NCBI GenBank assembly: GCA_963701095.1
Contig: OY969564.1
Location: 96,001 to 160,000, forward strand
Reading direction: 5' to 3'
From: an uncultured Methanoregulaceae archaeon
Lineage (GTDB): Archaea; Halobacteriota; Methanomicrobia; Methanomicrobiales; Methanospirillaceae
Length of the DNA: 64,000 nucleotides
The translations under genes and the position numbers were made by a program. How positions within the stretch are numbered: position 1 is the stretch's first letter; each line of letters begins with the position of its first letter. Under the pieces are notes generated by a model. That model did not search any database. It was given only the letters and a program-made list of their open reading frames with translations, and was not told the DNA's origin. Of this stretch, positions 30-62,858 are shown piece after piece.

Positions 30-980
30 TTATTTCCTTCGTGAGACTTTCTTCTTTGCACCGGCAGTTTTTGTCGGTTTCTTCACTCCAGCGGATTTTT
101 TTCTGACCGGCTCCCCGGATATGGGATATCCTTCCCGGTCAGTAACCGTTTTAAATTCCGCCATGAGTTGACGGGTAATGGGGCCGGGTTTTCCTGAACC
201 GATAACTCTTCCATCGACCCAGGTGATGGGTGCAACCTCCGCTGCCGTCCCGGTGCAGATCAGTTCGTCAGCAGTATAGAGATCGAAGTATCCCAGGTTT
301 TGTTCACGAAACGTAATACCCAGCGACTCGGCGAGTTCCTTGACGACCATCCGGGTAATCCCCCGGAGGTTGTTAAGTGTATAGGGGGTGAGAATTTCGC
401 CGTTTTTGATGATATACAGGTTGTCGCCGGAACCCTCAGCAAGATACCCATTGGTATCAAAGAAGATCGCCTCGTCACCTCCTTTATAGTTCGCTTCGAT
501 CTTTGCAAGAATGTTATTGAGGTAATTGAGACTCTTTACGTTGGGTGGCAGTGATTCGGCTGCGTTTCTCCTGACCGAGACCGTAATAGCCTTGAGGCCT
601 TTCTCGTACAGGTCGCCGTACATTGCACCCCATGTCACGCAGATTACTATAACGGATGCTTTTGGGCATTTACGGGGATCGAGACCCAGATCCCCGATAC
701 CTCGGGTTATGATCGGCCGTATGTAAGCGTCGGTCAGTTTGTTCCTGCGCATTGTCTCGCAGATCACGTCGGTCATCTCTTCTTTCGTTATCGGCGGGGT
801 AATATCCAGGGTTTTTGCCGAATCGAACAACCGGTCGAGATGTTCTTTGAGCCGGAAGATTCTGCCCTTGTATGCGCGGATGCCTTCAAAGACACCGTCG
901 CCGTATAACAGGCCGTGATCGAACACGGAGATCTTTGCCAAGGCTTCAGGGAGGTATTTTCCGTCAATGTAAATGATCAT
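30..980 (-). CDS. ilvE: Branched-chain amino acid aminotransferase (class IV PLP enzyme)
   Basis: Motifs [41 protein letters not shown]. Confidence 0.96.
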
Positions 981-981
981 A
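970..981. repeat. Candidate attL core overlapping the ilvE ATG
   Basis: TAAATGATCATA, identical to 62847-62858; an 11-bp copy also lies at 1035-1045. Confidence 0.55.
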
Positions 982-1037
982 TTAGTAACACTCCGTCAAG
1001 ATATACACTTTTATTTTTATACCCGTTTGGGTAATAA

Positions 1038-2108
1038 ATGATCATTGTGTCTTCCAATACTAAAAAGATACGAAGTGTTCCGCTCTATCTCTCGCTGCTC
1101 GAAAAAGCCGGGCGCTCGCAACAAACTATCAGAACCTACCGGGAAGCATTGCTCTATTTTTCCCGGTTCCTGGACGTGCCGCTTGAAGAGCTGCACAAGC
1201 ACCTGAGCGTTGAGAACCTCCTCGCTTATACCGATAGCGCGGCCCTGAAAGATGCCAGCCAGAACACTCGTCGCATGTGGTTAGCGATCATCCACAAGTA
1301 CATGAAACTGAATGGCGTGGAGTTCGACGAGCTGGAGACTTCCGTATTCAAACTCCGGCGTGACGATGTCAGGCGTGACAAGCCGCTGAAGATTGAGACC
1401 TTGCAGAAAATGATGGATCTTGCGGATGTGCATATGAAAGCATACCTGTCATTCCTCATCTCGACGGGTTGCCGGATTAATGAATCAGCGGAAATTCTGA
1501 TTACGGATATACAAGGCAATAGGGTTACGATACGCCCGGAGATCGCCAAAGGACGACATGGTGGCACAACATTCCTGACATCGGAAGCCCGGGAATACCT
1601 CGACCTGTGGCTGCGTGAGCGGGACCAGTGGATTCAACAGGCAAATGTGCGGACGAATAATATCGGATTGCGCAGACCTCAGGGTGACCAACGGCTCTTT
1701 GCCTGCACATCAAATAATCTCTCGAAACGGTTTCAGAAACTGTATGAGACTGTCGACGGCGAGAGCAGCCCTATTAAGGGCGGAACTCGCAACAAGATCA
1801 CCCCTCACTCGTGTCGCGCATATTTCCGGACACATGCCGTCACCAGCATGGGGATTGACCTGGTTGAAGGTATCATGCGGCATACCGGGTATCTGAATGC
1901 CGCGTATGTCCGCATGTCAGACGATGAACGCGAGAGGTTGTTTCATCTCGGAGAACATGAATTGTACATCACGAGGGCAAGCATACGCAATGAGGAACGG
2001 AAGATCGAGGAGATCAGAAGGGAGCAGGAAGAGAAAATATTGACCCTGGAACGACGGACTAAAATACTGGAAGCCTTACTGAAAATCGATGACTCAAAAA
2101 AGAAATGA
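1038..2108 (+). CDS. Tyrosine recombinase/integrase with C-terminal coiled coil
   Basis: TGCRINE (R), AKG (K), HSCR (HxxR), MRH...AAY (catalytic Y); N-terminal SAM-like 'SQQTIRTY'. Confidence 0.92.
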   Translation: MIIVSSNTKKIRSVPLYLSLLEKAGRSQQTIRTYREALLYFSRFLDVPLEELHKHLSVENLLAYTDSAALKDASQNTRRMWLAIIHKYMKLNGVEFDELETSVFKLRRDDVRRDKPLKIETLQKMMDLADVHMKAYLSFLISTGCRINESAEILITDIQGNRVTIRPEIAKGRHGGTTFLTSEAREYLDLWLRERDQWIQQANVRTNNIGLRRPQGDQRLFACTSNNLSKRFQKLYETVDGESSPIKGGTRNKITPHSCRAYFRTHAVTSMGIDLVEGIMRHTGYLNAAYVRMSDDERERLFHLGEHELYITRASIRNEERKIEEIRREQEEKILTLERRTKILEALLKIDDSKKK

Positions 2109-2307
2109 TTTGCCCTTAGTTTCATTTTTTGAAACTTTTGGTATTTTTTTTATATCATGTAAAGCGTTTTAGATATACCGCCTTGATTCTGAATAGATGT
2201 TAATTCACAGGGTTAAACAACAGATTCAGAGGGCGTTTTGGATCTGTTACCTTTCATACCGCACGTTTATGCATATAGAATCGGTGATACTGCACGCGCA
2301 AGACTAG

Positions 2308-2472
2308 GTGAGGCCAATTAATCCGACCATCGACGAACAACTTAATGATACCAATAAAAATTACAGTACGGGATTTGACGAGGATTTTCGACAGATTATC
2401 ATCAATATTATCAAGAGCGAAGAGTTTTCAGAATTTCTAAAAAAGGAAATTATCGAGATTGCTGAGAGATAA
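2308..2472 (+). CDS. 54-aa ORF convergent with the repressor (not in the ORF track)
   Basis: Read manually: GTG...MRPINPTIDEQLNDTNKNYSTGFDEDFRQIIINIIKSEEFSEFLKKEIIEIAER*. Confidence 0.4.
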   Translation: MRPINPTIDEQLNDTNKNYSTGFDEDFRQIIINIIKSEEFSEFLKKEIIEIAER

Positions 2473-2713
2473 TTTCTCTCATTAAACGCTCCAGTTCTCT
2501 TTTTACAGCCGGGTTACTCTTCATAAATGTAAGGATGGTTTCCTGCATACTACCTTCAAACTCTTTCCGGTTTTTATAATACTGTAACGCGGTATTCACC
2601 AAGTCACTAACTGACTCAAAAGGAGGTTTATTTCCATCTTTTGAATCTGTCTGATCCTGAACCCATTTGTCAAGATCGTTATTTATCTTGAATGACACCT
2701 GCCGTTTTACCAT
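2450..2713 (-). CDS. Ribbon-helix-helix (CopG/Arc-like) regulator, probable immunity repressor
   Basis: N-terminal strand 'QVSFKI', 'FESVSDLVNTAL'; divergent from the early operon. Confidence 0.7.
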   Translation of the reverse strand: MVKRQVSFKINNDLDKWVQDQTDSKDGNKPPFESVSDLVNTALQYYKNRKEFEGSMQETILTFMKSNPAVKRELERLMREIISQQSR

Positions 2714-2854
2714 AATCTTCTCGCCTCAATCTTAGTGATAATGGTACTACCATATACGTTATTTAATAGTATCACCATTTTTCCACCTTTTCGGCATGCT
2801 TATATTGTTCAATTTCGTAAGTAGATCCACCCACCATAGAGGTGTGAATGTAAA

Positions 2855-3001
2855 ATGAGTAAACGAGCAACAATTGAACTCGGAGACAACAATGAACGCA
2901 TCGTTGACACGCTTATCGAAAAAGGCATTTATAAAACCAAAATTGAGGCGATTCGTGCTGCAGTACGTGAACATGGCATAAAGTACGGAGTTTTGGCATG
3001 A
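2855..3001 (+). CDS. 48-aa RHH protein in a Cro-like position (not in the ORF track)
   Basis: MSKRATIELGDNNERIVDTLIEKGIYKTKIEAIRAAVREHGIKYGVLA; GAGGTG RBS upstream; typical archaeal RHH pattern. Confidence 0.75.
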   Translation: MSKRATIELGDNNERIVDTLIEKGIYKTKIEAIRAAVREHGIKYGVLA

Positions 3002-3165
3002 TCGAATCACTCGATTATCCGGCAGCGATGACCCCGGAAGATGTAAGATACTTCCGTGAACTCGGGCTCGGGCATAAAATAGACATTGGTCTGAAGATTG
3101 GTGCCCTGGAACTGATTAATGAGCAACAATATGGTGACCGGCATGCAAGCAAAAACAGGTTATAA
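2998..3165 (+). CDS. Small hypothetical viral protein (55 aa)
   Basis: ATGA overlap with the previous gene; MIESLDYPAAMTPEDVRYF... Confidence 0.5.
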   Translation: MIESLDYPAAMTPEDVRYFRELGLGHKIDIGLKIGALELINEQQYGDRHASKNRL

Positions 3166-3496
3166 CGGCGCCCCGACCCCACAGCCTGCAAGCATCGCGG
3201 GAGAGGGAAGCGCCGGTATAGTATCAGAACACGATCAGAAATATGTGCGCTCAACCTGCATCAGGTGCTGGCAGAAAGTCGTTATTGCATGGAAAAAGGG
3301 CGATTACCTGAAAGACAAGAAATGCCCCCTCTGTGGCGGCCGTCTTTTGGGTAAGGTGCCGGTCAAAAAGGGAGATCCTGATTACCCTGTTCTCGATGCA
3401 GACGCGACCCGGGCTACTGCGTTTCATTGTACAGCAGTCACAGGGACAAATCCGTTCGAGTTCGTGAGTTCTGCGCATGAACTGGTGGGACCATGA
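3119..3496 (+). CDS. Zinc-ribbon protein (start uncertain)
   Basis: CIRC...CPLCGG; ATGA overlap with the next gene. Confidence 0.55.
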   Translation: MSNNMVTGMQAKTGYNGAPTPQPASIAGEGSAGIVSEHDQKYVRSTCIRCWQKVVIAWKKGDYLKDKKCPLCGGRLLGKVPVKKGDPDYPVLDADATRATAFHCTAVTGTNPFEFVSSAHELVGP

Positions 3497-4308
3497 CCGA
3501 TCCCCGCATCATTGATTCACCTCTCGGTCCGGTGATCCCGGTAATCGATATCGCCAAACAGGTGGGATGCAGCCGCACTACCATCTCACATTCCATGCAA
3601 AGGCATCCAGCCCTTTTCAAGGATGTGACTTCAATTCAATGGCTGGAAACCCCTAGTGGCAGGCAGAAACATACCTGTATTGCAAAATCGGCAGTAGAGG
3701 ATCTTATCTCTCACCTACGGCCGATTAACCGTGACAACCTGCCGGAACGCATCGACACGTTCCGGGCGGCACAGATCAGGAAAAATAGTGCAGGAGCACC
3801 GGCCCTGTCTGATATTCTCGCCGAATATGCCCGGCAGGCAAGCGTGCTCGCAAAAGATTGGGATGTAAATCCGGCAGTTGCACAGAAAGTATCCATGGCA
3901 ACGGCCGTGGAAAGATATCCGGATCTGATGCCGTACCGGGCGCTTGTCGGAGGAAACGCTTCAGAAGAGGCACCAGTATCCCTTGCATTAACACCGGGCT
4001 TGCAGGCCGATCCCGATTATGACAAATTCTTCTCTCTCCGCAAGCTGGCACAGATCTGTCAGTGTGAAGAAAAAGTCGCCAGGAAGATCTTAGTCGATGA
4101 GGGTGTGATCGCATACCAGAACACCCACCTGATCCTTACCCATTATGGAGACCGGTTCGGCAAGATCTTTAAAGTCACCCCGGAAGCCCCACACAGAACG
4201 TATGAGGAAAGCAGGATCCGGTATAGCCCGGACGCCGTGCAACTCGTACGCGGGAAACTGTTCTGCATTCAGACAACACTTACGCAGGGAAAGAAAGCGA
4301 CGGGGTGA
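3493..4308 (+). CDS. Phage antirepressor-like DNA-binding protein
   Basis: N-terminal Bro/P22-AR-like segment (DIAKQVG...TPSGRQKHTCI); C-terminal KilA-C/ANT-like segment (SLRKLAQ...ILVDEGVI). Confidence 0.6.
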   Translation: MTDPRIIDSPLGPVIPVIDIAKQVGCSRTTISHSMQRHPALFKDVTSIQWLETPSGRQKHTCIAKSAVEDLISHLRPINRDNLPERIDTFRAAQIRKNSAGAPALSDILAEYARQASVLAKDWDVNPAVAQKVSMATAVERYPDLMPYRALVGGNASEEAPVSLALTPGLQADPDYDKFFSLRKLAQICQCEEKVARKILVDEGVIAYQNTHLILTHYGDRFGKIFKVTPEAPHRTYEESRIRYSPDAVQLVRGKLFCIQTTLTQGKKATG

Positions 4309-4471
4309 CCTCGATGGGCAAGCGAAAACGCATGTTACAACGAGCAGCGCCGTTGCTGTTCCGGTCGCATGACCTGTATGCAGAGTGCCGGAAGTATGGT
4401 GTAAGGGATATCTATGATCTGCCGGTCACGGTGCATTTCGCGTTCCGGTCGGAGCGGCTACGAGGTGCAGC

Positions 4472-5137
4472 GTGAGAGCACAGTATTGTCGGGAGCATAT
4501 CGACAAAGTAGCTGAAGAGTGCGGCATCAGCGAAGAGTACGTTTCTGATGTGAAGAAAGCCGCCAAGTTTTGTTCAGTGGCAGGAGAATTCTCCGACTGT
4601 GCTACCAGCGCAATTCTGGCTTTGATTAACGTTTCGGATGATATAGTGAGAGATAAAGCCATATCGTCCGTGTCAAATTCGTTGAAATCACTAAAGCATC
4701 CCCTGAACGGGCAGTTCCTGAAAGAGCGAAAATTGCCAGAAAAGACCATCAAGAAGGTGATACGGAATATAGAGCGGGAAGTACGGGGCGAGCTGACAAA
4801 GACCTATGAGAAAGAGCGGCGACCTGCACCGGAAACACCAAAAGAACCTGAAATAGAGCATATTGTTGAGGCACAGACCGGGTTCACGACCGCGGCAAGG
4901 ATGAGTGACGGTCTTGGCAACACATTCATCCGGGGAAATCCGCTCAAAATCACACCGGTTCAGCTGACCAAACTACAGGCAGAATCCGCGATAACTTCTG
5001 TGGTTCGGGGTCACTGGACGGATAAAGATCGTGCCGCCCTGGATGATCTCCGCAAGAACGGAGAGCTCGGCGATACGGATCACGACATCCTCTACAATGC
5101 GATGTGGACGTGCCATGATCGGTTGGGGGGTGCGTGA
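4472..5137 (+). CDS. Hypothetical viral protein
   Basis: 221-aa ORF in the early operon. Confidence 0.6.
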   Translation: MRAQYCREHIDKVAEECGISEEYVSDVKKAAKFCSVAGEFSDCATSAILALINVSDDIVRDKAISSVSNSLKSLKHPLNGQFLKERKLPEKTIKKVIRNIEREVRGELTKTYEKERRPAPETPKEPEIEHIVEAQTGFTTAARMSDGLGNTFIRGNPLKITPVQLTKLQAESAITSVVRGHWTDKDRAALDDLRKNGELGDTDHDILYNAMWTCHDRLGGA

Positions 5138-5401
5138 TGGCCGAACACAAAAAAGGTCACAAGGGTACGGTATCTACCCTCCGGTACAACCGGCAACGGC
5201 GTCGGACAAAGAAAGGACTGGAAAAACCGATTGAGTATACCACGACAGTAGAAGAAGCAGCTCTCGCGTTGGTGATGTGATTTTGTCGCATCTACCTACC
5301 TACCTCAGCGTACCGTCCGGTTATGTTATGTTATGTAACATAATCCGTAGTTCGGATTTTGGCATTAAGTCAATTTCAGGGTTCCATTCGCTGCAAAGGG
5401 G

Positions 5402-5869
5402 TTGGGGTCTTTGAGGAAAAACCACACCGTCAGTCTCGAAGAGGAAGATGTGCAACTTGCGCAAGCACTCGGTCTGACCAATCTTTCCGATTATGTCCGG
5501 AGTGCAATCTCGTATTTTATTTCTGGTTCAGATCGGGAACTCACCCCCACCGAGATCCGCGAACTCTCAAAAAAACTCGCTCTGGAAAAGCGAGCAGAAC
5601 TTCAAAAACAACAGAAAATCACCGGCCAGTCCAATGAGGAAAAACTGAAGATCGAAGATCTCCGTGCACAACGGCTTGCAAAGATTATCGAGTCGGTGAA
5701 AATCGAATCTTCCCGGGTCGGGTTCGACCGGTTCAAACGATACCTGGACGATCCCTATGGTGACTACGTTGCGATCCAAGACGACATTATAGCAGCAGTC
5801 TCGAATAGTGCCGGTTTCCCGGTGGATCTCGCTGATGTTGTCCAGGCGTTCAGGCAGGTGTCGGCATGA
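5402..5869 (+). CDS. RHH/CcdA-like N-terminal DNA-binding protein with coiled coil
   Basis: HTVSLEEEDVQLAQALGLTNLSDYVRSAI. Confidence 0.55.
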   Translation: MGSLRKNHTVSLEEEDVQLAQALGLTNLSDYVRSAISYFISGSDRELTPTEIRELSKKLALEKRAELQKQQKITGQSNEEKLKIEDLRAQRLAKIIESVKIESSRVGFDRFKRYLDDPYGDYVAIQDDIIAAVSNSAGFPVDLADVVQAFRQVSA

Positions 5870-6300
5870 GTTCCAACGGTGGCCCCCGGATTAAGAACGC
5901 GAAGAAAACCGTTATTGATAAGATCACTTTTGCATCGCATATGGAAGCCCGGCGATATATTGAGCTTAAGCGGCTGAAAGCGGCCGGGGTCGTGACTAAG
6001 ATTGATTGCCAGCCGGTATTTATGCTGCAACCTGCGTACCGGAAATGCTGCGATGTGAAATATGATGCCGAAATGACGCCGTTTCTCTATAAAAAAGGCA
6101 TCTGTGAGGTATGCGGGAAGAAGATGCCCGTGGTCAAGGCGATCCGGTATGTTGCCGATTTCCGGGTTACGTATGCAGATGGTCATTTTGAGGTAGAGGA
6201 AGTGAAAGGGTATGCCCAGGAGGTTTGGAGAATCAAGAAGAAAATTTTCGAATTCCGGTACCCGGAGATCACGCTTACAGTAGTAAAGAAGGTGCGGTGA
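5866..6300 (+). CDS. DUF1064-family PD-(D/E)XK nuclease with Cys-rich insertion
   Basis: FASHMEARRY, QPVFMLQ, YVADF...EEVKG; inserted CC...CEVC. Confidence 0.8.
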   Translation: MSSNGGPRIKNAKKTVIDKITFASHMEARRYIELKRLKAAGVVTKIDCQPVFMLQPAYRKCCDVKYDAEMTPFLYKKGICEVCGKKMPVVKAIRYVADFRVTYADGHFEVEEVKGYAQEVWRIKKKIFEFRYPEITLTVVKKVR

Positions 6301-6827
6301 TGACCCACAAACGCAACGGGAATTACAAAACCCTGAAAGATGAATGGGAAACCCCGGACTGGCTCTTTGCATTACTTGACCGGGAGTTTGATTTCCGGGT
6401 GGATGCAGCTGCTCGTAAACACAACACAAAAACCGGACTTTATTTCGAAGACGCACTTTCCGTAGACTGGGCGCATCAAGGGGGCATTGATCCCAGCTAT
6501 TTCCTTAATCCTCCCTACAGTGCCGGGAATATCTCCCGGTTTATGAAGAAAGCCTATGAGGAATCCCTGAAGGGTGCGGTAGTTGTTTGTCTTGTACCGG
6601 TCGCATCGGATACCGGATGGTGGCATACCTACGTGATGAAAGCAGACGAGATCCGGTTCATCAAAGGCCGGGTGAAGTTTATCGGGTACGATGGACAGGG
6701 CAACCCTATCAGGAACTCACCGACGTTCTCATCATGTGTTGTTATTTTTCGGGAAATGTATAAAAAAAGGTTCACTCCGTATATCGGGAAAACCGTCGAG
6801 CGACCCCGGAAGTGTGTGCAGTCATGA
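6300..6827 (+). CDS. Phage DNA N6-adenine methyltransferase (Dam-like)
   Basis: EWETPDWLF, FRVDAAA, NPPY, DTGWW, IRFIKGRVKF. Confidence 0.9.
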   Translation: MTHKRNGNYKTLKDEWETPDWLFALLDREFDFRVDAAARKHNTKTGLYFEDALSVDWAHQGGIDPSYFLNPPYSAGNISRFMKKAYEESLKGAVVVCLVPVASDTGWWHTYVMKADEIRFIKGRVKFIGYDGQGNPIRNSPTFSSCVVIFREMYKKRFTPYIGKTVERPRKCVQS

Positions 6828-7069
6828 ATGAAGAAACAAGAGTTATTTGGGGACGTTCACGAAGCGAGAAAGCAAAATATGTCCATCTTTTTATCAATGA
6901 CGAAGACTGCTGTGGACTAGGATCGCGGCTGGATCTGCAAAACGACGATTGGGATCCCAACAATCCCGAAACATGCCCGCACTGCAGGAAATATTTTGCA
7001 TGGCTAAAAAGGGGATTTCACCGCGTTCCAGAATCTTCAGGAATGCGTAAAAATTCGTTGGCTAAATAG
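6824..7069 (+). CDS. Small Cys/His-rich hypothetical protein
   Basis: VH...CCG...CPHC. Confidence 0.55.
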   Translation: MNEETRVIWGRSRSEKAKYVHLFINDEDCCGLGSRLDLQNDDWDPNNPETCPHCRKYFAWLKRGFHRVPESSGMRKNSLAK

Positions 7070-7141
7070 AATATAATTGATAAGTTAAATCCCATTGACA
7101 CAACAGCACAATTAAGTGTTATACTATGGGATAGTTTAATT

Positions 7142-8353
7142 ATGGAAGGAGGATTCTATGAAATTTTTCCGGGAAAAAAGCAAAAAGAACATTTTGTCCC
7201 TAAATGGTATCTAAGAAATTTTTCTTCCACTCCAGATCAAGGTCATATATGGGTTTATACTACTGAAACGAAAAAAATTAAACAAGAGCCCATTAATCTA
7301 GTTGCACAAAAACAAGGATTTTACGGAAAAGAATTCGAAGATTCATTGGACCCGATTGATACTAGAACGAAGCGTGTAATTGAAAATATTATTTTAAGCG
7401 AAAATATTGATGGTTTAACAAGTACTCAGGAAACCACATTACATGAGTTTTTTACTTTACAATATTATCGAACAGAACATGCAAAAAAGCTCGTCGAAAA
7501 TCAGCTAGAATTTACCATAAAATTTCAAATGGTACCAAAATTAAAACAATCCTATAAACATATTGCCGAAAAAGATTTTGTATCGATATTGAGTGAACCT
7601 CCGACACCTAATTTTTTTCTGTTAAACATCGATATGGCATTATGTTCAATAAAAGCGTTATCCGATTTAACCCCATATTTAATAAAAAATAACACTAATG
7701 TGCCATTTTTTACGAGTGATGACCCCGTAGCTTTCAATAATCGTTATCATGTACCCAATAAATTTTTAATCGGTCTTCATTCCGTTGGTTTACAAATATT
7801 TTGTCCAATAAACGAAAGATACAGCATAATGTTAATTCATAGAGAGGCTTACGATTTAAAAAATTCTGATAGATCTCTTATCAAATTAACTTCAAAAAAA
7901 GATGTTGATTTATTCAATAAATTACAGATCTTAGACAGTCATTTCCAGATTTTTTCAAAAAAGAACTCCTTGAGTTATATTCAACATTTGCATAAAGAAT
8001 CGGAAATGATGAAAAAATCAAAAGGGTTCGACATAAAATTACAAAATGAGATTCCTAGTGAAATTAAAGAATATAAAAAAGTAGAAAGAAGAGACTATGG
8101 ATTACAATTTTCATTTTTAGAGCGTAATAAGAATTTTGTTAGGAACGAATGGCCAAAATGTTTAAGGGAATCACAATCATCCAAAACGGCTTTTGTGCGG
8201 AATAAAGAAATTTATGACGAAGTAATGGCTAATACCGACTCATTTATATCCTCATTTTTGAAGAATTATCAATCAATGATGGAGCAAAAAGTAACTCAGC
8301 TCGATTCAAAAACGATTTCTGTAAAACATCCAAGATATATCAATCAAACATGA
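7142..8353 (+). CDS. DUF4238-family protein (AT-rich moron)
   Basis: N-terminal HFVPKWYLRNF; FFTSDDPV; IFCPIN. Confidence 0.8.
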   Translation: MEGGFYEIFPGKKQKEHFVPKWYLRNFSSTPDQGHIWVYTTETKKIKQEPINLVAQKQGFYGKEFEDSLDPIDTRTKRVIENIILSENIDGLTSTQETTLHEFFTLQYYRTEHAKKLVENQLEFTIKFQMVPKLKQSYKHIAEKDFVSILSEPPTPNFFLLNIDMALCSIKALSDLTPYLIKNNTNVPFFTSDDPVAFNNRYHVPNKFLIGLHSVGLQIFCPINERYSIMLIHREAYDLKNSDRSLIKLTSKKDVDLFNKLQILDSHFQIFSKKNSLSYIQHLHKESEMMKKSKGFDIKLQNEIPSEIKEYKKVERRDYGLQFSFLERNKNFVRNEWPKCLRESQSSKTAFVRNKEIYDEVMANTDSFISSFLKNYQSMMEQKVTQLDSKTISVKHPRYINQT

Positions 8354-8503
8354 ATATTTTTTTTATTTTTTAACCATTTTCACTCTAAAAATCGCAATAT
8401 TCCATTCAATAAAGATTCTAAATTATCAATTTCACCGTCCCGCACCCTCCTTGACCATCCCGTACCCTAATTTCCACTTATCTCAGGCTACCGTCCATTC
8501 TCT

Positions 8504-9079: not shown

Positions 9080-9081
9080 CC

Positions 9082-9791: not shown

Positions 9792-9812
9792 TATCACCTC
9801 ATAATCACCTCC

Positions 9813-9896: not shown

Positions 9897-9901
9897 TTGA
9901 C

Positions 9902-10051: not shown

Positions 10052-10058
10052 GGTACGC

Positions 10059-14152: not shown

Positions 14153-14155
14153 TGA

Positions 14156-54500: not shown

Positions 54501-55503
54501 CGTGGATTGAAATTCTTCTTCATTGCGGTTAAAATAGAGTACTTCAGGTCGTACCCCGTGCGGGTACGTGGATTGAAATAATTTTAACCGCTCCTGTTGA
54601 ACTGCCGACGACGGTCGTACCCCGTGCGGGTACGTGGATTGAAATATCCCAACAACCGCATAGGTGCCGGCGCGTAGAGGTCGTACCCCGTGCGGGTACG
54701 TGGATTGAAATCGGTTACTTGAGAGATCATATCCAGGAGCTGCCCGTCGTACCCCGTGCGGGTACGTGGATTGAAATCTGTAGATTTCTGCGAGCTGATC
54801 ACGTAGAAGATGTCGTACCCCGTGCGGGTACGTGGATTGAAATGATCATGGTGTCACGTCCGGCAAAATCTTATGAGTCGTACCCCGTGCGGGTACGTGG
54901 ATTGAAATGCGGTTCTGAACAAGCATTGGCCGGATGTGCCGAAGTCGTACCCCGTGCGGGTACGTGGATTGAAATATGCCCTCGCCCGGTTGGGTCACGA
55001 TATGCACCGGAGTCGTACCCCGTGCGGGTACGTGGATTGAAATGCGGCCCGGTGCATCTGCACCAGCAGCGGAAAAGTCGTACCCCGTGCGGGTACGTGG
55101 ATTGAAATTTCCCGGAACCCTGCGACATCTGCCGGTCTAGTTGTCGTACCCCGTGCGGGTACGTGGATTGAAATATATTTCCAGCATTTTTCTGGGTGAA
55201 ATTCACTCGTCGTACCCCGTGCGGGTACGTGGATTGAAATCCTCTAGCACCGTGCCACAGTCCTCACAATATCGTCGTACCCCGTGCGGGTACGTGGATT
55301 GAAATACTGACAGCCACGCACCGGCGGCAATGGTAAACCGTCGTACCCCGTGCGGGTACGTGGATTGAAATTTGAATATGCCGGTAAGTATATGGGTCTA
55401 CTGGAGTCGTACCCCGTGCGGGTACGTGGATTGAAATCTGATGCGAGTCCGTTCCTGCTGGATGGCTGCAGGTCGTACCCCGTGCGAGTACGTGGATTGA
55501 AAT
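51511..55503 (+). CRISPR. Type I-C CRISPR array, 61 repeats / 60 spacers (manual count)
   Basis: 32-bp repeat GTCGTACCCCGTGCGGGTACGTGGATTGAAAT; spacers ~33-36 bp; last repeat has one substitution. Confidence 0.98.
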
Positions 55504-55835
55504 AATTCTTCGAACAATTTTTTTTCAAATTAAGGGAAAGGTAATACAGTCCTGTCCTGCTTTCCTTTTATTTACATAAAATGAAAACAGAAGCGTTCGA
55601 AAAATATGCTCAATTTACCGTAAATAACAATTAAAGAAAAAATACAGTTCAAGAAAAATAAATAGCTAAAAACAAGATCTTTTGGGACCATTTCGGCCGT
55701 AGTCGCCGAACTAGGACAAGCTGAATTATTGTCTCATATTCCCTCTCTTCTCTGATGTTCCGTATAATACCCCGAATGTGTCAGAAGGGGTCCGGGCAAA
55801 AGATAGAACAAAAAGAGATACCAGCGCCGAAAAAA

Positions 55836-56487
55836 TTATGCGTCCTTTCGTACAAGCCGGCTCCCGAGTTCGTACGCCTTTTTGCAGTCGAGCGGGAACT
55901 GTTCTTCCTTGTGTTTCTTTTTTGCCACCGGATCAAAGAGCGTGGATACGTACTTTGAATAATCGTCGAACTGGAACGTGTTAGTGACCCAGAGCGTGTC
56001 GCATGAACCGAAGATCCGGGCCATTGCCATCTCGGTTGGCTGCTCAAACCGGTCAAAGCCCATTTCCTTTACCATTGGTTCCGGGGCCCCGGCCGTGTAG
56101 ATAAAACCCGTCCGGATCTTTTTCCCGAAAAGCGAGGAGTGCTCCGGGTCGTAGACCGAGTACTGGAACATCAGCCGTTCGAGAAACGATCGTGTCATTC
56201 CCGTAATTAGCGAGTAATAGATGGGCGAACCGATGAGGATCGCGTCTGCGGCCCCGACTTTTTTAAAGAGCGGCAGGAGTTCGTCCTTTACCGGACAGTG
56301 TCCATAACTTTTCCCACCGATCCTTTTACAGGCAAAACAGACTTGTGCAGCCCGTGTAGTCCAGATCGTAGAGATGGATGAGTTCAGTTTTAGCCCCTTC
56401 GGATTTTGCGCCTTTGAGTGCATGTTCAAGGGGAGTTGCGGTGTTCCACTTCTTCCGTGGGCTGCCGTTAATTGCTAAAACTTTTAT
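55836..56487 (-). pseudogene. Flavodoxin/iron-sulfur flavoprotein family gene with apparent start loss and frameshifts
   Basis: KVLAINGSPRKKWNT, C..CFACK, IGSPIY, FLERL; 5' part in shifting frames. Confidence 0.7.
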
Positions 56488-57335
56488 TATAACCACGTCA
56501 CTTTGAGAGGTTTGCTGCGCTCCGGAATGCGCATCGGTTTATACTTTGGATACCCGGCCAATATCGCGCCGGCAAGCTTGCGGTTGTCCGGGATGTGGAG
56601 GGCTTCTCTTACGGGACGATAATTCTGGGCAACACTGACCAGCCGTCCAGCCCAGCACGTCCCGAGCCCGAAAGCCGGGGCGGTGACATCGACATGGGTA
56701 AGTGCGATGATCGCATCGGTCTCTACCAGACCCGTGGAATCCGCCTTCCCCGTGGGAACATGGGCGCCGATAAGAACCGGGGCGCCCCGGCAGACAATAT
56801 CGATTCCTTTATTCCAGTATTCAGTGAGTAAAGGAATGTATCCACTGATAGGATGATCACTTTTCCCCGATTCCTGTAAATAATCCATCGTAAGTGCGGC
56901 TATGGTATGGACTTTTTCAGCACCGTTCACGACTACCCATTCGACAGGCTGGTAATTGCTCCCGGTCGCAGCATAGCGGGCGATCCCAAGGATCTGCATA
57001 AGGGTTTCATTGGCCACCGGATCGGGACGGAATACCCGGATCGAGCGGCGACTTTTAAGATAGGTACCTAGAGTTTCCGGATGCATCAATCCAGGCGCTG
57101 CTGCACGTTGGAGGTGCACACCTTCCTTGTGTTCGCGGGTCAGCGCCCCGGTCGGACAGAATGCTTCGCAATGCCCGCAGGACAGACACCCTGCCTCCTT
57201 CGAGGACGGGATTTCCGGAAGCGCAGCATCGTTATCAGCCCGTGCTATAATCTGCGTCGTGCAAATCTCCGAACAGATCCCGCACTGGGTGCAGAGATCA
57301 CGATCAACGGTTATTCCGACCATAAGGATAACCAT
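56487..57335 (-). CDS. Nitroreductase with N-terminal 2x[4Fe-4S] ferredoxin domain
   Basis: CTQCGIC...C, CLSCGHCEAFCP, RRSIR, GLGTCWAG. Confidence 0.92.
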   Translation of the reverse strand: MVILMVGITVDRDLCTQCGICSEICTTQIIARADNDAALPEIPSSKEAGCLSCGHCEAFCPTGALTREHKEGVHLQRAAAPGLMHPETLGTYLKSRRSIRVFRPDPVANETLMQILGIARYAATGSNYQPVEWVVVNGAEKVHTIAALTMDYLQESGKSDHPISGYIPLLTEYWNKGIDIVCRGAPVLIGAHVPTGKADSTGLVETDAIIALTHVDVTAPAFGLGTCWAGRLVSVAQNYRPVREALHIPDNRKLAGAILAGYPKYKPMRIPERSKPLKVTWL

Positions 57336-57446
57336 CCTGAAAATATGAGATCGGCGTTGCCGTCAGTTTCTTCAATTTTTCTCATACCCGGTTTGAATCG
57401 TTCGCTTTGCATACCAACTAGTACGCCTGGCCATAATAAATAGTTT

Positions 57447-57461
57447 GTTAGATTAACTAAC
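57447..57461. promoter_or_regulatory. Palindrome GTTAG-N5-CTAAC, candidate MarR operator
   Basis: Upstream of the nitroreductase, next to marR. Confidence 0.45.
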
Positions 57462-57474
57462 CAATTTTATTGAT

Positions 57475-57990
57475 TTACTCTTTCTTTTCCGGTGAGCATT
57501 CAATCATAATCCGGAAGGCTTCTGTAAGGGTTTTCTGCTGGTTTTCTGTTGTGGTTTTCTCAATCTGTTTTATGAATGCCTCAAAAACCCGCTGTTTGTG
57601 TTTAAAAACTTGACAACCTTTTTTGCTCAGGGACAGGAGGAATTTGCGCTGGTCAACATCGGATTGGGTTCGGACAACGAATCCATCCTTCATAAGTTTT
57701 GTAATTGCGGCGTTGGCTGAAGGTTTTGAGACACCGAGTTTTTGGGCAAGCTCAGTTAAGGTGATCCTATCGTTGCGTTGGATACCTCGGAGATAATAAA
57801 ACTGGTTGAGGGTAAGATCGCAAAAGCCAATCTTTTCCATTTCGACCTTATCTGCCTCAACGGTAACTTGGCGGTACCGTTCAATAAACTCAACAAACAG
57901 GTCCCCTAATTCCATAGCAGTACATAGAACCAATTCAAGTATTAAGGTAATGAAGGGTTCTGTTGCATTATCGGGACTTTGAATTGTCAA
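57475..57990 (-). CDS. MarR-family regulator (start probably ~57915)
   Basis: LTELAQKLGVSKPSA...KL..DGFV.R..S..DQR...L.L...G. Confidence 0.88.
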   Translation of the reverse strand: MTIQSPDNATEPFITLILELVLCTAMELGDLFVEFIERYRQVTVEADKVEMEKIGFCDLTLNQFYYLRGIQRNDRITLTELAQKLGVSKPSANAAITKLMKDGFVVRTQSDVDQRKFLLSLSKKGCQVFKHKQRVFEAFIKQIEKTTTENQQKTLTEAFRIMIECSPEKKE

Positions 57991-58146
57991 TATTGATGGG
58001 ATATTATCATATTATTTTTCGCTAAGTTCCGATCACTTTCACATCTCCCAAGGCCGGATCCTTATCCTCCTCAGTGCAGCAGGGATCCGGTGCTATGCAA
58101 ATCAAGATCCTCGAGCACCAGGACTACGAAAGACCGGAGTGGGATC

Positions 58147-60091
58147 GTGTGGATCCTTGATTCCGCGTACCGAGATCATGGTATTGACCTCTGGACAAAG
58201 GATGGCACTGTAACCAAAACCCATTACGACTATCAGCCACCTTTTTACGTCCACCTCCACGACCCTCACGCTCACCATGAGATGATCGAAGCATTGGAAG
58301 AGCGGTACGGTGCGGAGGAGTGCACCATCAAAACCATCTTTGGCGAACTCCCCGGGTACGCTGTCTTTGCAGGCCGGGATGTGGCCGAAGCGATAGAACG
58401 GCAGGCGCAGTTCGACATCGATATCTTCAACGTTGATGTGCGCCGGGACCAGCGGTTCATGGCCGAGCGTGGGATCTGCCCGTGTGTGGGAGAAGGTGAC
58501 GACCGGTTTTCCCCGGAGATTGCACATGACCTTACCGTAATGGAAATTGACATCAAGGGCAACCCGGCGCTCTCCTCGCAGTTCACAGAAATTGAAGTGA
58601 AGGGGATCCACAGAGAACGGCTTACCGGTGAGAACCATGAAGTCCTCGGAGCACTCTTCGGGCTCGTCAGTTCCCTTGACCCCGATGTAATCCTCATGCC
58701 GGATGCCGATACCTGGATGCCGAAGATCCGGACGCTGGCAAAGCAGTATGACCTGGTCATGCCCTTCTCGCGGAATGGAAAGTACCGGCAGATGGACGCC
58801 CGCTCGTACTGGAGTTACGGCAGGATGGAGCACAAGGAATCCGCGCTTATTCCGGACGGGCGCATCCTGATCGATACCGAACAATCGTTCGTGTTCCGGG
58901 AGGGCGGTCTGGAAGCAGGTACTCATGGCCGCCCGTCTCGCAGGACTCTCCCCTAACCTTGCGTCCCGGTTCACGCCGGGAACGCTCATCAGCAGTTACG
59001 AAGTCTACGAAGCAGTAAAACGGGGGATTGCGGTACCGTTCCGCAAGAGCGACCCCGAGCAGAGCCGCAAGCTCTCCGCCCTCCAGGCTGCTGACCGGGG
59101 CGGGATGATGTACCAGCCGAAGCCAGGAACGTATGAGAATGTCGAGGAGATCGATTACACCTCCATGTATCCCTCAATCATCGTAAAAGCGAACCTCTCT
59201 CCGGAGACGGTCGGGCATCAGGAGCGGGCGGGATTCCTTCCCGCCGTCCTCAAGCCGCTGCTCGAACTCCGTATCAGAACCAAGCGCCTCAAGAAGACCA
59301 ATCCACGGTTTGCCGGTACTGATGCAATTCTCAAGTGGATGCTCGTCACCTGTTTCGGGTACACGGGCTACAAGAATGCAAAGTTCGGGAGAATTGAGGT
59401 TCATGAAGGCATCACAGGCCGCTCCCGGGAAATCCTGATACAGACCAAAGATATCGCTGAGGAGATGGATTTCCGGATACTGCACGGGATCGTAGACTGC
59501 CTCTGGGTGCAGGGATCACCGATCAAAGCACTCAGGGAACGGGTCGAGCGTGAGACCGATATGCTCCTTGAAGTTGACCACTTCGACTGGATCGTCTTTC
59601 TGCCGCTCGCGGATGGTTTTGGTGCCTATAACCGATATTATGGCAGGCAACCGGATGGTAGTATCAAGGTCCGGGGGATTGCCGCAAGAAGGCATGATAC
59701 GGCAGAGTACGTGCGCGAGATGCAGAGCAGGATGCTGGATGTCATGTCCCGGGTAAAAACGATTGCAGAACTCAAAGAGACACAGGATGAAGTCACACGA
59801 ATTTACCGGGAAACCATACACAACCTGCCGGCGGCGGATCCAAAGGAAATGATGATCAACCGCCGGATTAGCCGGCTCACGTATGCGCACCGGTGCATTG
59901 AAGGCGCAGCAGTGCAGGCATACCAGGATAACAAGATAGAGATTGCTCCCGGTATGAAAATTCAGTACGTTGTGACCGATGCCCGGCGATACAAAGTGGA
60001 ACCAGTGTGGTGCGCATCATCGTTTGATGTTGGGTATTACCGGGAATTGATCGATAAGGCATATGCCGAGATCAAGTTCGCATTTTCCTAA
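58147..60091 (+). CDS. Family B DNA polymerase, PolB2-like (frameshift near 58920)
   Basis: DYTSMYPSII, KW.LVTCFGY.GY, HGIVD in place of YGDTD, NRYYG, KVRG. Confidence 0.82.
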
Positions 60092-60153
60092 ATAAGACAA
60101 AAAGAGAGATCCTGTGAACCTTCACCGGATTGTGGGGGCAATGAACCCACAAT
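60030..60153. repeat. ~125-bp direct repeat, copy 1 (polB 3' end plus two hairpins)
   Basis: Near-identical to 60654-60781. Confidence 0.9.
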
Positions 60154-60188
60154 GTGCGGATAGGGCCTGTTTTGATTGAAAGGGAATA

Positions 60189-60443
60189 TCACCGATCATA
60201 TACTTTCTTTCTCGGACCTACTTTTAAAATGGAAACCATCAATTCCGTATCATCAATTTCAAGGATGGCCCGATAGTTCCCGACACGCTGATGATACCAT
60301 GGATATCCCTCACATCGTTCTGCCGTGCGGTGAGGATCTTCCGATAACGATTCAATTTTATCAACAATTCGTTTTGAGATTGAGGGAGATAACTTCTCCA
60401 AATCCTTGCGTGAACGATCTGTCCAAAAAATAGAATAACTCAT
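60189..60443 (-). CDS. relE: RelE/ParE-family toxin
   Basis: KDLEKL...RIV.KI..L..DP, RVGNYRAI, VGPRKKVY. Confidence 0.88.
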   Translation of the reverse strand: MSYSIFWTDRSRKDLEKLSPSISKRIVDKIESLSEDPHRTAERCEGYPWYHQRVGNYRAILEIDDTELMVSILKVGPRKKVYDR

Positions 60444-60589
60444 TCAATCCCAAGTTTGGCACGTACTTCTTTGGTAGTGTAGACATGCCCCTGACGGATA
60501 TCTTCTTGGGCCTCGGCAATGTCCTTTAAATCCTGCTCATCCAGATATGCATCCGGGTTTTTGCAGGTCTTTTTGATAAGCTCCGGCAT
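60440..60589 (-). CDS. RelB-like antitoxin (49 aa)
   Basis: DLKDIAEAQEDIRQGHVYTTKEVRAKLG; ATGA overlap with relE. Confidence 0.75.
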   Translation of the reverse strand: MPELIKKTCKNPDAYLDEQDLKDIAEAQEDIRQGHVYTTKEVRAKLGIE

Positions 60590-60653
60590 GATACAATAGT
60601 TATACCCGGACGAGATTATCAAACCTGCGATTATTCCAGTCGTATTTTGCCCC

Positions 60654-60781
60654 TTGGGTATAATCGGGAATTGATCGATAAGGCATTGGCAGAGATCAAG
60701 TTCGCATTTTCCTGAATAGGACAATGAAAAAGAGAGATCCTGTGAACCTTCACCGGATTGTGGGGGCAATGAACCCACAAT
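60654..60781. repeat. ~125-bp direct repeat, copy 2
   Basis: Encodes GYNRELIDKALAEIKFAFS*, the polB C-terminus. Confidence 0.9.
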
Positions 60782-60922
60782 TGCCGGAGTGGATTCTGGT
60801 GCGTTGTCGGGACTTTTAATTAGTCAACATTGATAGGTCACGACGACTTCATTTTCGTGACATTCACGAGGGTAACATAAACCGGAGAGATTATCTCATT
60901 TTCGGGTCATTGTTTCATAACA

Positions 60923-61291
60923 ATGGAAAAACTGTCGGTTGAGAAAATTATCGAGATTCACAACGACATCATTGAGGACTTCGGGGGGGAGCACGGCGTC
61001 CGAGATCTCGCAACTATCGAATATCTCATCTACCGGCTGGAGCGGAAAAGCAGCGTATTCCATAAGGCTGCAATTGCCTTGCACGCGATTTGCACCGATC
61101 ACCCCTTTATCGATGGAAATAAGCGGACAGCCTTTGTTGTTGCAGATAACCTGTTAAAGGAGAGTGGATACCGCATTCAGGCGACCGATGACGAGGTCGT
61201 CTCGTTTATGCTTGAAGTGGCACAATACACTCACACGATGGAATCCGTTAAAAAATGGATAAAAAAGAGTGCTGTATTACAGACGGCTTAA
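60923..61291 (+). CDS. doc: Doc/Fic-family toxin
   Basis: HPFIDGNKRTA. Confidence 0.9.
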   Translation: MEKLSVEKIIEIHNDIIEDFGGEHGVRDLATIEYLIYRLERKSSVFHKAAIALHAICTDHPFIDGNKRTAFVVADNLLKESGYRIQATDDEVVSFMLEVAQYTHTMESVKKWIKKSAVLQTA

Positions 61292-61408: not shown

Positions 61409-61617
61409 GATCTCTTTTTATTTTTCCTCTGAAGTGATAAAACTATCAATACGACGTATCCGGGTTTTCAATAGTGAGATGCGGACATCCAAGGCCTCAG
61501 ACCCTGCCCTGCTTAATCAATAAATACATCGCTCCGGGAAAGTCATAATCGACTAATACTACACACTTTATACGATCTTAGGTTCGATCGTAAATAGTAC
61601 ACTCACTTTCACCCGAT

Positions 61618-61700
61618 AACTCCCCCCTATTTTTAATTATTTTGTGATATTATTCTAATTATATAAGGAGATTAACTTGACGGTACGTTATTGTTAAATG
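61618..61700. repeat. 82/83-bp direct repeat, copy 1
   Basis: One substitution and one C-run indel versus 62771-62852. Confidence 0.92.
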
Positions 61701-61736
61701 CAAAAATCCGTTATCCGAATAATGGATGAAAAAAGA

Positions 61737-62171
61737 TCAAATATTTAGTGATACTTCCCCGGCAGGAAGCGGTCTGACACAGAGTGTCTTCTGGTGCATA
61801 CCCCTCATAACAACATCGATCTTGCGGGAGGTCTCCGTAGTGTAATATGATTCCCCGCACTTTTCGCAAACATACGCCGGCACATCTTTAATTACAACGA
61901 TTTCGTTGCCAGCCCTTCCCATAAACTCTGTAGTGGATTCTTCGAGTGTTCCATCACAGAAAGAACAACGATCGAATTTTACCCTTGAAGGGCTCAAAGA
62001 GGACTTAGATTCGATTTTATGGCCACCGGACCTCTTTCCAATGCGAGTGGTTGACACGTCCTTATCTTTTGGTGCGAAGACAGGTGAGATGCTGTCTGGA
62101 TTTTCCGCAAACTTTTCCTTCATCTTTCGCATGAAGAGTTTTTCCGTATTTTTTGTTTTTGATGTTGCCAT
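61737..62171 (-). CDS. YgiT-type (MqsA-like) zinc-finger protein with N-terminal extension
   Basis: CSFC...IKDVPAYVCEKCGESY. Confidence 0.85.
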   Translation of the reverse strand: MATSKTKNTEKLFMRKMKEKFAENPDSISPVFAPKDKDVSTTRIGKRSGGHKIESKSSLSPSRVKFDRCSFCDGTLEESTTEFMGRAGNEIVVIKDVPAYVCEKCGESYYTTETSRKIDVVMRGMHQKTLCVRPLPAGEVSLNI

Positions 62172-62200
62172 AATGCTTCCCCCCTTTGAATTACTTCGTT

Positions 62201-62503
62201 TTACCTTCTTCTACGGTGCTCTACCCATTTCTCTTCTTTCGGAAAATATGCGGTGATGACGACGAGATGCTCCGGGCAAAATGCTACTACTACATGATAT
62301 GCGATATGGTTAATAAAACCGAGTATAACGGCGGAGGGACAGGGAATTCTATGGGGATCTTCCTCAATTATTTCACCAGAAGCGACAATATCCATCACTT
62401 CGTCCGTTGAAATATTCCGTTCGAACATTCTGTCCCGGGCATGTTTAGATATGAGGACCGCATCCCTCTCAACAAATTCGGCTCTCCGCGCAGCTGCCTC
62501 CAT
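62201..62503 (-). CDS. DUF4258-family protein (putative toxin partner of the YgiT finger)
   Basis: SKHARDRMFERNI, GEIIE, HVVV, VITAY.P...W. Confidence 0.85.
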   Translation of the reverse strand: MEAAARRAEFVERDAVLISKHARDRMFERNISTDEVMDIVASGEIIEEDPHRIPCPSAVILGFINHIAYHVVVAFCPEHLVVITAYFPKEEKWVEHRRRR

Positions 62504-62770
62504 TACATTTACCCTGACTAGGTTACCTGTCTATCATTATTCCATCGTAAAAGATATAATTAACTTCGATGGGATTCACGGGTTCTGTAAAGTCTGCGGG
62601 AAAACATAAGGAAAATGAGGCTTTCGCATGAGTGAGCACCCCCCGTCACTGGCAACTATCTGGAAATTCCAGATCGTTCATCCGCGAAATGGTGGGATAT
62701 TAACTGAGAAGTGAATGTGCAGATTATGCATTTTTTCTTTGAGTAACCATTTTTCATTAATCTGCGACGG

Positions 62771-62852
62771 AACTCCCCCTATTTTTAATTATTTTGTGAT
62801 ATTATTCTAATTATATAAGGTGATTAACTTGACGGTACGTTATTGTTAAATG
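62771..62852. repeat. 82-bp direct repeat, copy 2, running into the candidate attR core
   Basis: Matches 61618-61700; contains TTATATAA. Confidence 0.92.
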
Positions 62853-62858
62853 ATCATA
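62847..62858. repeat. Candidate attR core
   Basis: TAAATGATCATA; minus strand reads ATG ATC ATT TAA versus ilvE ATG ATC ATT TAC. Confidence 0.55.

Follow-up and report, generated by a model that had tools for sequence, protein, structure and literature searches.

The DNA analysed here, a window of 64,000 nucleotides from an uncultured Methanoregulaceae archaeon (assembly GCA_963701095.1, contig OY969564.1, positions 96,001–160,000), probably carries one 60.7-kb provirus with a type I-C CRISPR-Cas system (short palindromic repeats, clustered and regularly interspaced, with their associated genes) in a variable slot, together with a tandem 1.15-kb toxin-antitoxin (TA) cassette, the whole inserted by an integrase at the start codon of the aminotransferase gene ilvE. 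An initial annotation had proposed that a single 62-kb element may lie at this site. Its account of the borders and contents is largely borne out below; the single unit is not, because a duplicated attachment-site (att) arm divides the insert into at least two units. Hereafter the source genome is called G000 and the window provirus P1, and G- and L-numbers denote other genomes and DNA stretches.

The insert is bounded by a 12-nucleotide core. This sequence, TAAATGATCATA, occurs exactly twice in the window, at 970–981 (attL) and at 62847–62858 (attR), both on the plus strand and both where they had been reported. The left copy contains the start codon of ilvE (30–980, minus strand; class IV aminotransferase, Pfam Aminotran_4, E 4.9e-57), and the opening codons of the gene, ATG ATC ATT TAC, are its reverse complement. 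Read on the ilvE strand, the right copy is ATG ATC ATT TAA (M-I-I-stop), and it lies 112 bp from the stop codon of a cfbB-like open reading frame (ORF; 62970–63674, minus strand), where about 110 bp had been estimated. The same 12-mer stands at the ilvE start of relatives whose site is empty, and in the genome G307 it flanks a smaller insert on both sides. Chance alone could account for a 12-mer repeat: outside the CRISPR array, identical 12-mers form 531 pairs in the window, and at least three matches at no more than one mismatch arose in 2 of 100 control shuffles. It is the position over a start codon, the empty site in relatives, the resumption of native ilvE upstream sequence beyond the right copy and the presence of G307 arms at the same core that identify the core repeat as real. 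Homologues of ilvE at E≤1e-40 were found in all 31 genomes searched (G000 counted). The window product is 316 residues long and most relatives align over residues 1–290 only, which points to a C-terminal extension or an assembly indel.

The empty site had been predicted to be a direct junction of cfbB and ilvE, and this was set beforehand as the test of the proposal. We took the ilvE neighbourhoods of 20 relatives, one of which lies on a contig that ends at ilvE, leaving 19 informative loci, and added five further genomes of the genus. Upstream of ilvE, and on its strand, a cfbB homologue is present at 18 of the 19 loci of the first set, with a gap of less than 400 bp in 13 and of 1.4–11 kb in five, and in all five genomes of the second set, where four gaps measure 153, 436, 445 and 1,415 bp and the fifth is the special case G307. 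Taken together, 23 of the 24 informative relatives have the predicted arrangement (gap below 450 bp in 16). None of these relatives has a homologue of a window-internal ORF between cfbB and ilvE; G307 has a 4.9-kb cousin of the insert. The loci with large gaps retain the native sequence beside the ilvE ATG, and the idea that five of them (G007, G010, G013, G009 and G019) mark an insertion hot spot was rejected, as their additional genes are ordinary ones placed between cfbB and the native promoter, away from the core.

Within the genus, the region around the ilvE ATG reads ...TAAATGATCATA followed by G(C/T)nTnTGATGG...TTTTGTAGTTTTTTCTTT; in the window the second half begins at 62859. The stretch from there to 62969 (GCATGTGATGGGG...TTTTTTAGTTTTTTCT) aligns to the corresponding post-ATG-region sequence of G008, G004, G014 and G003, and is the native ilvE upstream region, now cut off from its gene. 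Beyond it stands the cfbB-like gene (62970–64000, minus strand; CobB/CobQ-type amidotransferase, Pfam GATase_3 and CbiA), which is in two frames and runs past the window end. Since native sequence resumes immediately to the right of the right core copy, the ancestral site read ...CAATGTAAATGATCATA|GCATGTGATGGGG..., and 982–62858 (61,877 bp) was inserted into it. As had been proposed, the element thus supplies ilvE with new upstream DNA.

A tyrosine integrase gene (1038–2108, plus strand; Pfam Phage_integrase and Phage_int_SAM_1) starts 57 bp inside the left core copy, in agreement with the initial annotation, and has homologues in 10 of 107 other genus genomes. Between core and integrase lies the left att arm (982–1037), the only DNA now upstream of ilvE. 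It has CCGTCAAG 11 nt from the core and, on the ilvE strand, an A/T-rich box (GTATATC / TATAAAAATAAAAG) at a promoter-like distance, from which we infer that the arm serves as the ilvE promoter. In the right att arm with the attR core (62775–62858, plus strand), CTTGACGG stands at the same distance of 11 nt. A joined attP would be symmetric about the core, with CTTGACGG on one side and its complement CCGTCAAG on the other at equal spacing, as is expected of an integrase core site; the corresponding pair in G307 agrees at 7 of 8 positions.

Further evidence comes from G307 itself, where two copies of the 12-mer (positions 1493 and 6428 of L042) enclose an insert of 4,935 bp. Its left arm includes 30 nt (TAGTAACACTCCGTCAAGATATACACTTTT) identical to the window left arm and adjoins a truncated integrase gene with 88% identity across 98 aa. 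On the right, 76 nt of the arm align at 79% identity, the sole clear match among the 107 other genus genomes. The cargo of the G307 insert is non-viral and has no relation to that of the window. The shared core, arms and integrase show that the 61,877-bp insert was made by an integrase, one that targets the ilvE start codon.

Two side observations concern the integrase and its target. A core copy with one mismatch (TAAATGATCATT) lies at 1035–1046 over the start of the integrase gene and may be an additional integrase binding site; integrase and ilvE both start M-I-I, and the G307 counterpart of this copy is TAATTGATCATG. In G247 (L048–L050, G247:C1:384000–443999) a 44.6-kb provirus with an integrase 54% identical to that of the window is bordered by the 15-nt repeat ACTACCTCAGGATAT, 4 nt upstream of a host gene start codon, a second case of targeting to the 5′ end of a gene.

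At its right end the insert carries a duplication. An internal copy of the right arm (61623–61700, plus strand) is identical at 77 of 78 positions to 62775–62852 and ends in TAAATG, the first half of the core, after which unrelated DNA follows; we take the 60.7-kb unit to end here on the right. Enclosed by the two arm copies is a TA cassette (61701–62774, minus strand) with a zinc-ribbon/MqsA-like gene (61737–62171) and a DUF4258 gene (62201–62503), both assigned by Pfam. No further right-arm copies were found in the window or the genome. A duplicated arm that ends in a half core implies that the last 1,152 bp, with the DUF4258 TA pair, form a separate tandem unit, so that the insert comprises at least two units: 982–61700 (60.7 kb) and 61701–62846 (1.15 kb). 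There are thus three direct copies, as expected of a tandem array (attL, the half-core internal arm and attR), and they set off the 1.15 kb only. Beyond these known copies, no core or arm was found near 40–43 kb, just as none had been seen near the end of the tail genes. Immediately to the left of the internal right arm, 81 nt (61532–61612) are 74% identical to DNA upstream of the polB gene of another provirus in the genome, P3.

Does the 60.7-kb unit belong to the virus throughout? G000 contains two sister proviruses that speak to this question. P2 (G000:C1:786655–848759; window-relative 690,655–752,759) is 62.1 kb long, is bounded by a 49-nt repeat of tRNA-Thr(GGT), has a Pfam-confirmed integrase at its left, and has as its last gene an intact 657-aa family B DNA polymerase (polB), 265 nt before attR. 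Its early genes are 57–94% and its tail genes 56–70% identical in amino acid sequence to those of the window. P3, of about 43 kb (G000:C1, about 2069202–2112160), likewise has the integrase at its left and polB as its last gene; its early genes are 48–86% identical, and an 18-nt repeat with one mismatch lies just outside the integrase and polB ends. The P3 site is the start of a small ORF beside a FEN1-like gene. P1 thus has early genes in common with P2 and P3, and tail genes in common with P2.

The window polB (58034–60091, plus strand; Pfam DNA_pol_B, in two frames) is the final conserved backbone gene of this family. The polB products of the three proviruses are 86–92% identical, and a fourth copy in the genome, with no provirus genes nearby, is 69–75% identical to them. 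Between the fibre gene and polB the three proviruses have only the fibre 3′ end in common, apart from a SRAP gene found in P2 and P3. The gene order suggests a family layout of integrase ... fibre – variable slot – polB – att. Because polB is terminal in P2 and P3, the CRISPR-Cas genes of the window, which stand between fibre and polB, would lie between conserved parts of the provirus and not past its end; polB in P2 and P3 is the last gene inside the att sites. The initial annotation had included CRISPR-Cas, polB and TA genes in the unit, and their place within the integrase-bounded insert, with the sister proviruses ending in polB beside att, agrees with it. Two arguments to the contrary were considered and abandoned: that 60.7 kb is too large for the virus, dropped once P2 proved to be 62.1 kb, and that the CRISPR-Cas lies outside the provirus on grounds of a sharp GC change, host-like genes beyond and size, overturned by the comparison with P2 and P3. 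The length of P2 is due to several low-GC cargo islands, which hold GmrSD-like, GGDEF, PKD, BacA and flavodoxin genes and a reverse transcriptase with a PD-(D/E)XK nuclease; P2 also carries radical SAM and SRAP genes.

An element of about 78 nt with an internal palindrome (CCGGATCC...GGATCCGG) precedes each provirus polB, the window copy lying at 58033–58110. Its other positions in G000:C1 are 782031, 783974, 786228, 716116 (reverse strand), 846428 and about 2109930; three of these follow one another at intervals of about 2 kb immediately left of P2 attL, and one is elsewhere. These copies may be remnants of older elements or a structured site.

The CRISPR-Cas module is complete. The type I-C cas operon (43585–51279, plus strand) comprises cas3 (in two frames), cas5, cas8c, cas7, cas4, cas1 and cas2 and no cas6, with Pfam matches to Cas_Cas5d, Cas_Csd1 (E 8e-174), Cas_Cas7, Cas4, Cas1 and Cas2 that place it in type I-C; cas3 is in a single frame in G268 and G312. 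The first repeat of the array follows cas2 at 231 bp. The array (51511–55503, plus strand) has 61 repeats of 32 nt, the last of them mutated, and 60 spacers of 33–36 nt, the number given by the initial annotation. Within G000, including P2 and P3, the spacers find no match longer than 19 nt, and at E≤0.01 they find none in the 63 loci examined. Upstream of the operon stands a 486-bp segment (42964–43449, plus strand) with a mini-array of two 33-nt repeats (at 43132 and 43199) and a 34-nt spacer. Downstream of the array, on the minus strand, follow host-like genes assigned by Pfam (55836–57990): an FMN-reductase-like gene, an Fe-S nitroreductase gene and a MarR gene.

Comparison of these parts with other genomes makes the CRISPR-Cas look like recent, strain-specific and exchangeable cargo and not like part of a set of genes that the virus stably keeps. 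Of 301 genomes of the order (G000 counted), 60 have a Cas8c homologue, as do nine of 48 of the genus. The flanks of the five closest I-C loci map to different parts of G000. The 486-bp segment recurs with 100% identity in two metagenome contigs, in each of which it follows secreted-protein genes and precedes a type I-B operon: L060 has both repeats and the same spacer (8794–8893), and L059 has one repeat (219–251) and no spacer. G103, another species of the genus, has a 1,555-bp piece of its contig C56 that is 100% identical to L060 7076–8630. Other genes of the chromosomal context in which relatives keep MarR and nitroreductase genes map elsewhere in G000. Horizontal transfer of this gene pair was considered, as it is 91–92% identical at the nucleotide level to G312 and G035 and ilvE 77–81%, but other G000–G312 orthologues are 77–92% identical in amino acid sequence and there is no clear signal.

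Some smaller features of the module were also noted. The mini-array (43132–43231) has a repeat unlike the I-C repeat and a spacer without a clear target, and its repeat was not found in IMG/VR, G103 or G356. A role for the mini-array as a cas-regulating RNA was rejected, since no stretch of its spacer longer than 11 nt recurs in the window, and the cas promoter region contains no match. A 28-nt motif at 43422–43449 and its inverted copy at 55560–55587 (four mismatches) bracket the entire I-C module, and identity with the I-B-linked contigs stops exactly at the end of the left copy. As a module border the motif carries little weight, because it occurs away from cas genes in G356, G184 and G000:C1:672373.

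We propose the following history for the locus. A tyrosine integrase would insert DNA at TAAATGATCATA, overlapping the ilvE start codon; with the same 12 bp in attP, ilvE would retain its M-I-I start, and the left arm would take the place of the promoter region and presumably drive the gene. The stretch 982–61700 would be a member of a mosaic family of temperate, siphovirus-like archaeal viruses laid out as att – integrase – early – packaging – head – tail – fibre – cargo slot – polB – att. The slot, at about 39.9–58.0 kb, would be filled by low-GC genes and a host-like block of about 15 kb that comprises the type I-C CRISPR-Cas with its 60 spacers and the FMN-reductase-like, nitroreductase and MarR genes; TA genes would follow polB, and a 1.15-kb TA cassette with its own right-arm copy (61701–62846) would have been added in tandem. 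Recombination probably brought the CRISPR-Cas block into the slot, at a recent date and in no lineage but this one. Along with the restriction-modification (R-M), kinase and TA genes it would act as a provirus-borne defence of the lysogen. A bolder extension of this history is possible but doubtful: that a temperate tailed virus of peat and wetland methanogens moves a complete, adaptation-competent I-C system with 60 spacers between strains in a swappable slot of a genome of about 60 kb, replaces the ilvE promoter and start region, and gives its lysogen adaptive immunity, I-B and I-C modules being exchanged at the 486-bp segment.

The linkage of the parts can be examined in metagenomes, for which Logan contigs only were used. 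Twenty runs from 15 studies, labelled as peat, wetland, bog, soil or freshwater metagenomes, cover all or part of 36001–46000, and four of them from four studies (X2–X5) were compared over 33001–53000; thinly covered parts (40.3–42.3 kb, and the array past 51.7 kb) were not used as evidence of absence. X2, X4 and X5 contain pieces of the cas operon with no or one differing letter (a 4,767-nt piece in X5), and pieces that run from 43420 into cas3 (43420–44241) with no differing letters; the pieces in X3 are shorter. X2 also has a 924-nt piece over 40194–41118. In all four runs the mini-array has a single repeat (43131 joined to 43199), two bases are added at 44847, by which cas3 would become one frame, and one base is missing at 40412; the last two differences suggest assembly indel errors or a strain difference. 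The G000 assembly is a single contig of 86% completeness in which cas3, polB (58.9 kb) and cfbB (63.2–63.7 kb) are each in two frames.

Several findings weigh against placing the CRISPR-Cas in the provirus, or against a functional virus. In X2, X4 and X5 the summed contig depth, a weak measure, is 5–10 times higher over 33.0–39.7 kb than over the cas operon, with many variant letters in the high-depth contigs, and by the same weak measure it has a minimum at 40.3–42.3 kb; in X3 it is uneven. No contig joining tail genes to cas genes was seen in the four runs over 33001–53000, and the tail–cas linkage rests on one single-contig assembly with indel errors. These data suggest that the tail module, the cargo and the cas module are not always linked, which fits a structural module circulating with other cargo. 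The five I-C loci closest to the window's (Cas8c 70–80% identical) occupy other chromosomal places with flanks unrelated to those here, the 100%-identical 486 bp precede an I-B operon in a non-viral-looking context of another species, and the MarR and nitroreductase genes have counterparts, 86–92% identical in amino acid sequence, that occupy a common chromosomal context in G312, G035 and G307. The repeat taken as att in P3 is short (E 0.026, restricted search), Pfam and PHROGs name no portal in P1, and a transposase-bearing 10-kb island divides the structural genes, so that the provirus may be defective.

Which other explanations would fit these data? The initial annotation had offered tandem accretion of several elements as its alternative. 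On such a reading, the virus would end after the fibre gene at about 40 kb, and about 40.4–61.7 kb would be one or more older elements of the same att site that have lost their internal att and integrase, the CRISPR-Cas never having been viral. The second right arm proves at least one extra integration or duplication at the site. GC content falls from 53% to 36% at about 40.4 kb and returns to about 50% at about 43 kb, the summed contig depth (a weak measure) drops in the bin 39671–40337 in all four runs, and the host-like genes and the swapped segment upstream of cas point the same way, as do the unrelated non-viral cargo beside the same right arm in the G307 cousin and the G247 provirus, which stops 2.5 kb past its tail genes. 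However, a hypervariable slot after the fibre gene accounts equally well for the steps in GC and depth, no arm, core or integrase remnant is present anywhere in 2.1–61.6 kb, and the gene beyond the CRISPR-Cas is polB, the terminal gene of P2 and P3, so that the backbone continuing past the CRISPR-Cas is the simplest reading. Accretion therefore stands for the last 1.15 kb, where the second right arm supports it, and is weakened at 40–43 kb, where there is no att copy; as an account of about 40.4–61.7 kb we hold it to be unlikely.

An assembly artefact would explain the neighbourhood differently, as a misjoin at the 486-bp segment common with a more abundant species, so that the CRISPR-Cas is not truly beside the provirus. 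The assembly is indeed one incomplete contig with frameshifts in cas3, cfbB and polB, 42964–43449 occurs at 100% identity in contigs of another species, and contigs of the runs branch at this segment, leaving loose ends at 42964 and 43449; two consensus strings of such loose ends were not found in G000. Yet contigs of X2, X4 and X5, from three other studies, enter cas3 from 43420 with no differing letters, and polB and the right arm follow on the same contig. Moreover, the outer ends are anchored by the att duplication and by cfbB–ilvE synteny, and an artefact would therefore need two compensating misjoins, which makes it very improbable. That the core copies are a chance repeat in an ordinary chromosome, as the abundance of identical 12-mers might allow, is refuted by three findings: 23 of 24 relatives have the site empty, native promoter sequence restarts immediately beyond the right copy, and G307 has a homologous element at the core. 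A provirus with CRISPR-Cas in its slot and a TA cassette in tandem remains the reading that we prefer.

How does this locus compare with known systems? Phage-encoded CRISPR-Cas is not new: Vibrio phage ICP1 reportedly encodes a type I-F system, and huge phages are said to encode such systems as well. In those cases, as here, the locus lies within viral borders beside other defence genes. The present system differs in its methanogenic archaeal host, in its temperate, integrated, siphovirus-like provirus and in being a full type I-C system with cas4–cas1–cas2 and a 60-spacer array. P2/P4-like prophages and satellites carry variable defence cargo between conserved core genes, and the hypervariable fibre–polB slot, wholly different in P1, P2 and P3 and holding defence-type genes, resembles these hotspots; it differs in the archaeal host, in the terminal family B polymerase and in cargo of up to 18 kb that includes host-like metabolic genes. 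Phage integrases that target tRNA genes have an attP that rebuilds the end of the target gene. The duplicated core, the intact target gene and the integrase beside attL are the same here, and P2 in tRNA-Thr follows the classic mode, whereas the target of P1 is the 5′ end and start codon of a protein-coding gene, so that the element must provide a promoter rather than a 3′ end. Casposons are transposons with Cas1 and a family B polymerase, and cas1 and polB stand less than 10 kb apart in the window. However, this cas1 is part of a standard I-C adaptation operon beside its array, and polB is 7 kb off behind the array and host-like genes. No inverted repeat in 43.0–62.9 kb encloses both cas1 and polB, the sole bracketing pair (28 nt) omitting polB. 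Operon context, polB distance and the inverted-repeat search together rule out a casposon.

The initial annotation had called a full CRISPR-Cas system in an archaeal virus unusual. The accessible text of a 2026 survey agrees, reporting 38 archaeal viral genomes with CRISPR systems among 3,708, of which one system is relatively complete and most lack cas1, cas2 and cas4 (PMC13465236). The window system is likewise a CRISPR system in an archaeal virus genome, and differs from most of those described there in having cas1, cas2 and cas4. Provirus-borne CRISPR-Cas is not mentioned in the accessible part of a 2026 provirus survey (PMC13573593), and a limited literature search turned up no earlier description of this element. 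The locus would be a well-delimited case of a complete CRISPR-Cas within an archaeal provirus, in an environmentally common methanogen lineage. It makes several ideas testable: that proviruses are carriers and exchange platforms of archaeal adaptive immunity, that an invariant upstream segment is the place where entire cas modules of different types replace one another, and that an integrase can act at a start codon while an essential biosynthetic gene stays expressed. The locus also defines a provirus family that ends in polB and fills its slots with defence genes, with three members in one genome.

The early, replication and packaging genes (2450–16752, plus strand; Pfam and PHROGs) include a DUF1064 resolvase-like gene, Dam, a ParB-like gene, TerS (11648–12103) and TerL (12027–13652), and the early and packaging blocks are 57–94% identical in amino acid sequence to those of P2 and 48–86% to those of P3. 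A low-GC DUF4238 gene (7142–8353, 403 aa) breaks the early region, and a GmrSD-like gene occupies a comparable place in P2. The head and tail module (26995–39853, plus strand; Pfam and PHROGs) holds a Mu gpT-like capsid gene (29294–30277), neck, tail terminator and major tail protein genes, and genes for tape measure (33661–35373), Dit, Tal-like (36232–38580) and fibre (38588–39853). The viral hallmarks found thus extend from TerS and TerL through the capsid and neck to the tail genes, of which tape measure, Dit and fibre are 56–70% identical in P2. A capsid search found none in 400 other genomes of the order, and a tail DNA search found one match in 107 genus genomes, 503 nt at 79%. Scans of IMG/VR found no relatives with the Tal-like protein and one distant match, L055, with the integrase.

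Between the packaging and head genes lies a low-GC cargo island (16888–26902; GC 36–42%) with a Ser/Thr kinase-TPR gene, TPR proteins, a BsoBI-like type II R-M system and a DDE/SWIM transposase gene (24476–25717), in which PADLOC calls PD-T4-6/mad6, REase_II and MTase_II. A provirus in a Methanocellaceae metagenome-assembled genome (L056–L058) has packaging and head genes in common with the window (TerL 63–70%, capsid 53% identical) and neither tail nor integrase in common; its 2.9 kb in place of the 10.2 kb here argues that the low-GC island is an insertion into the provirus. The cargo slot itself starts with low-GC genes (39980–42963; GC 36–40%), among them a DUF3800 gene (42047–42706, Pfam), that have no homology to the P2 and P3 slots.

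Downstream of polB stand a ParE toxin cassette (60030–60788), with parE at 60189–60443 on the minus strand (Pfam ParE_toxin), and a Fic/Doc-family gene (60923–61291, plus strand; Pfam Fic, E 1.3e-14). The ParE cassette is bracketed by a 131-nt duplication (60030–60160 and 60654–60788; 86–95% identical) of the polB 3′ end and downstream DNA, and is 91% identical at the nucleotide level in G118, where it lies on a contig without polB.

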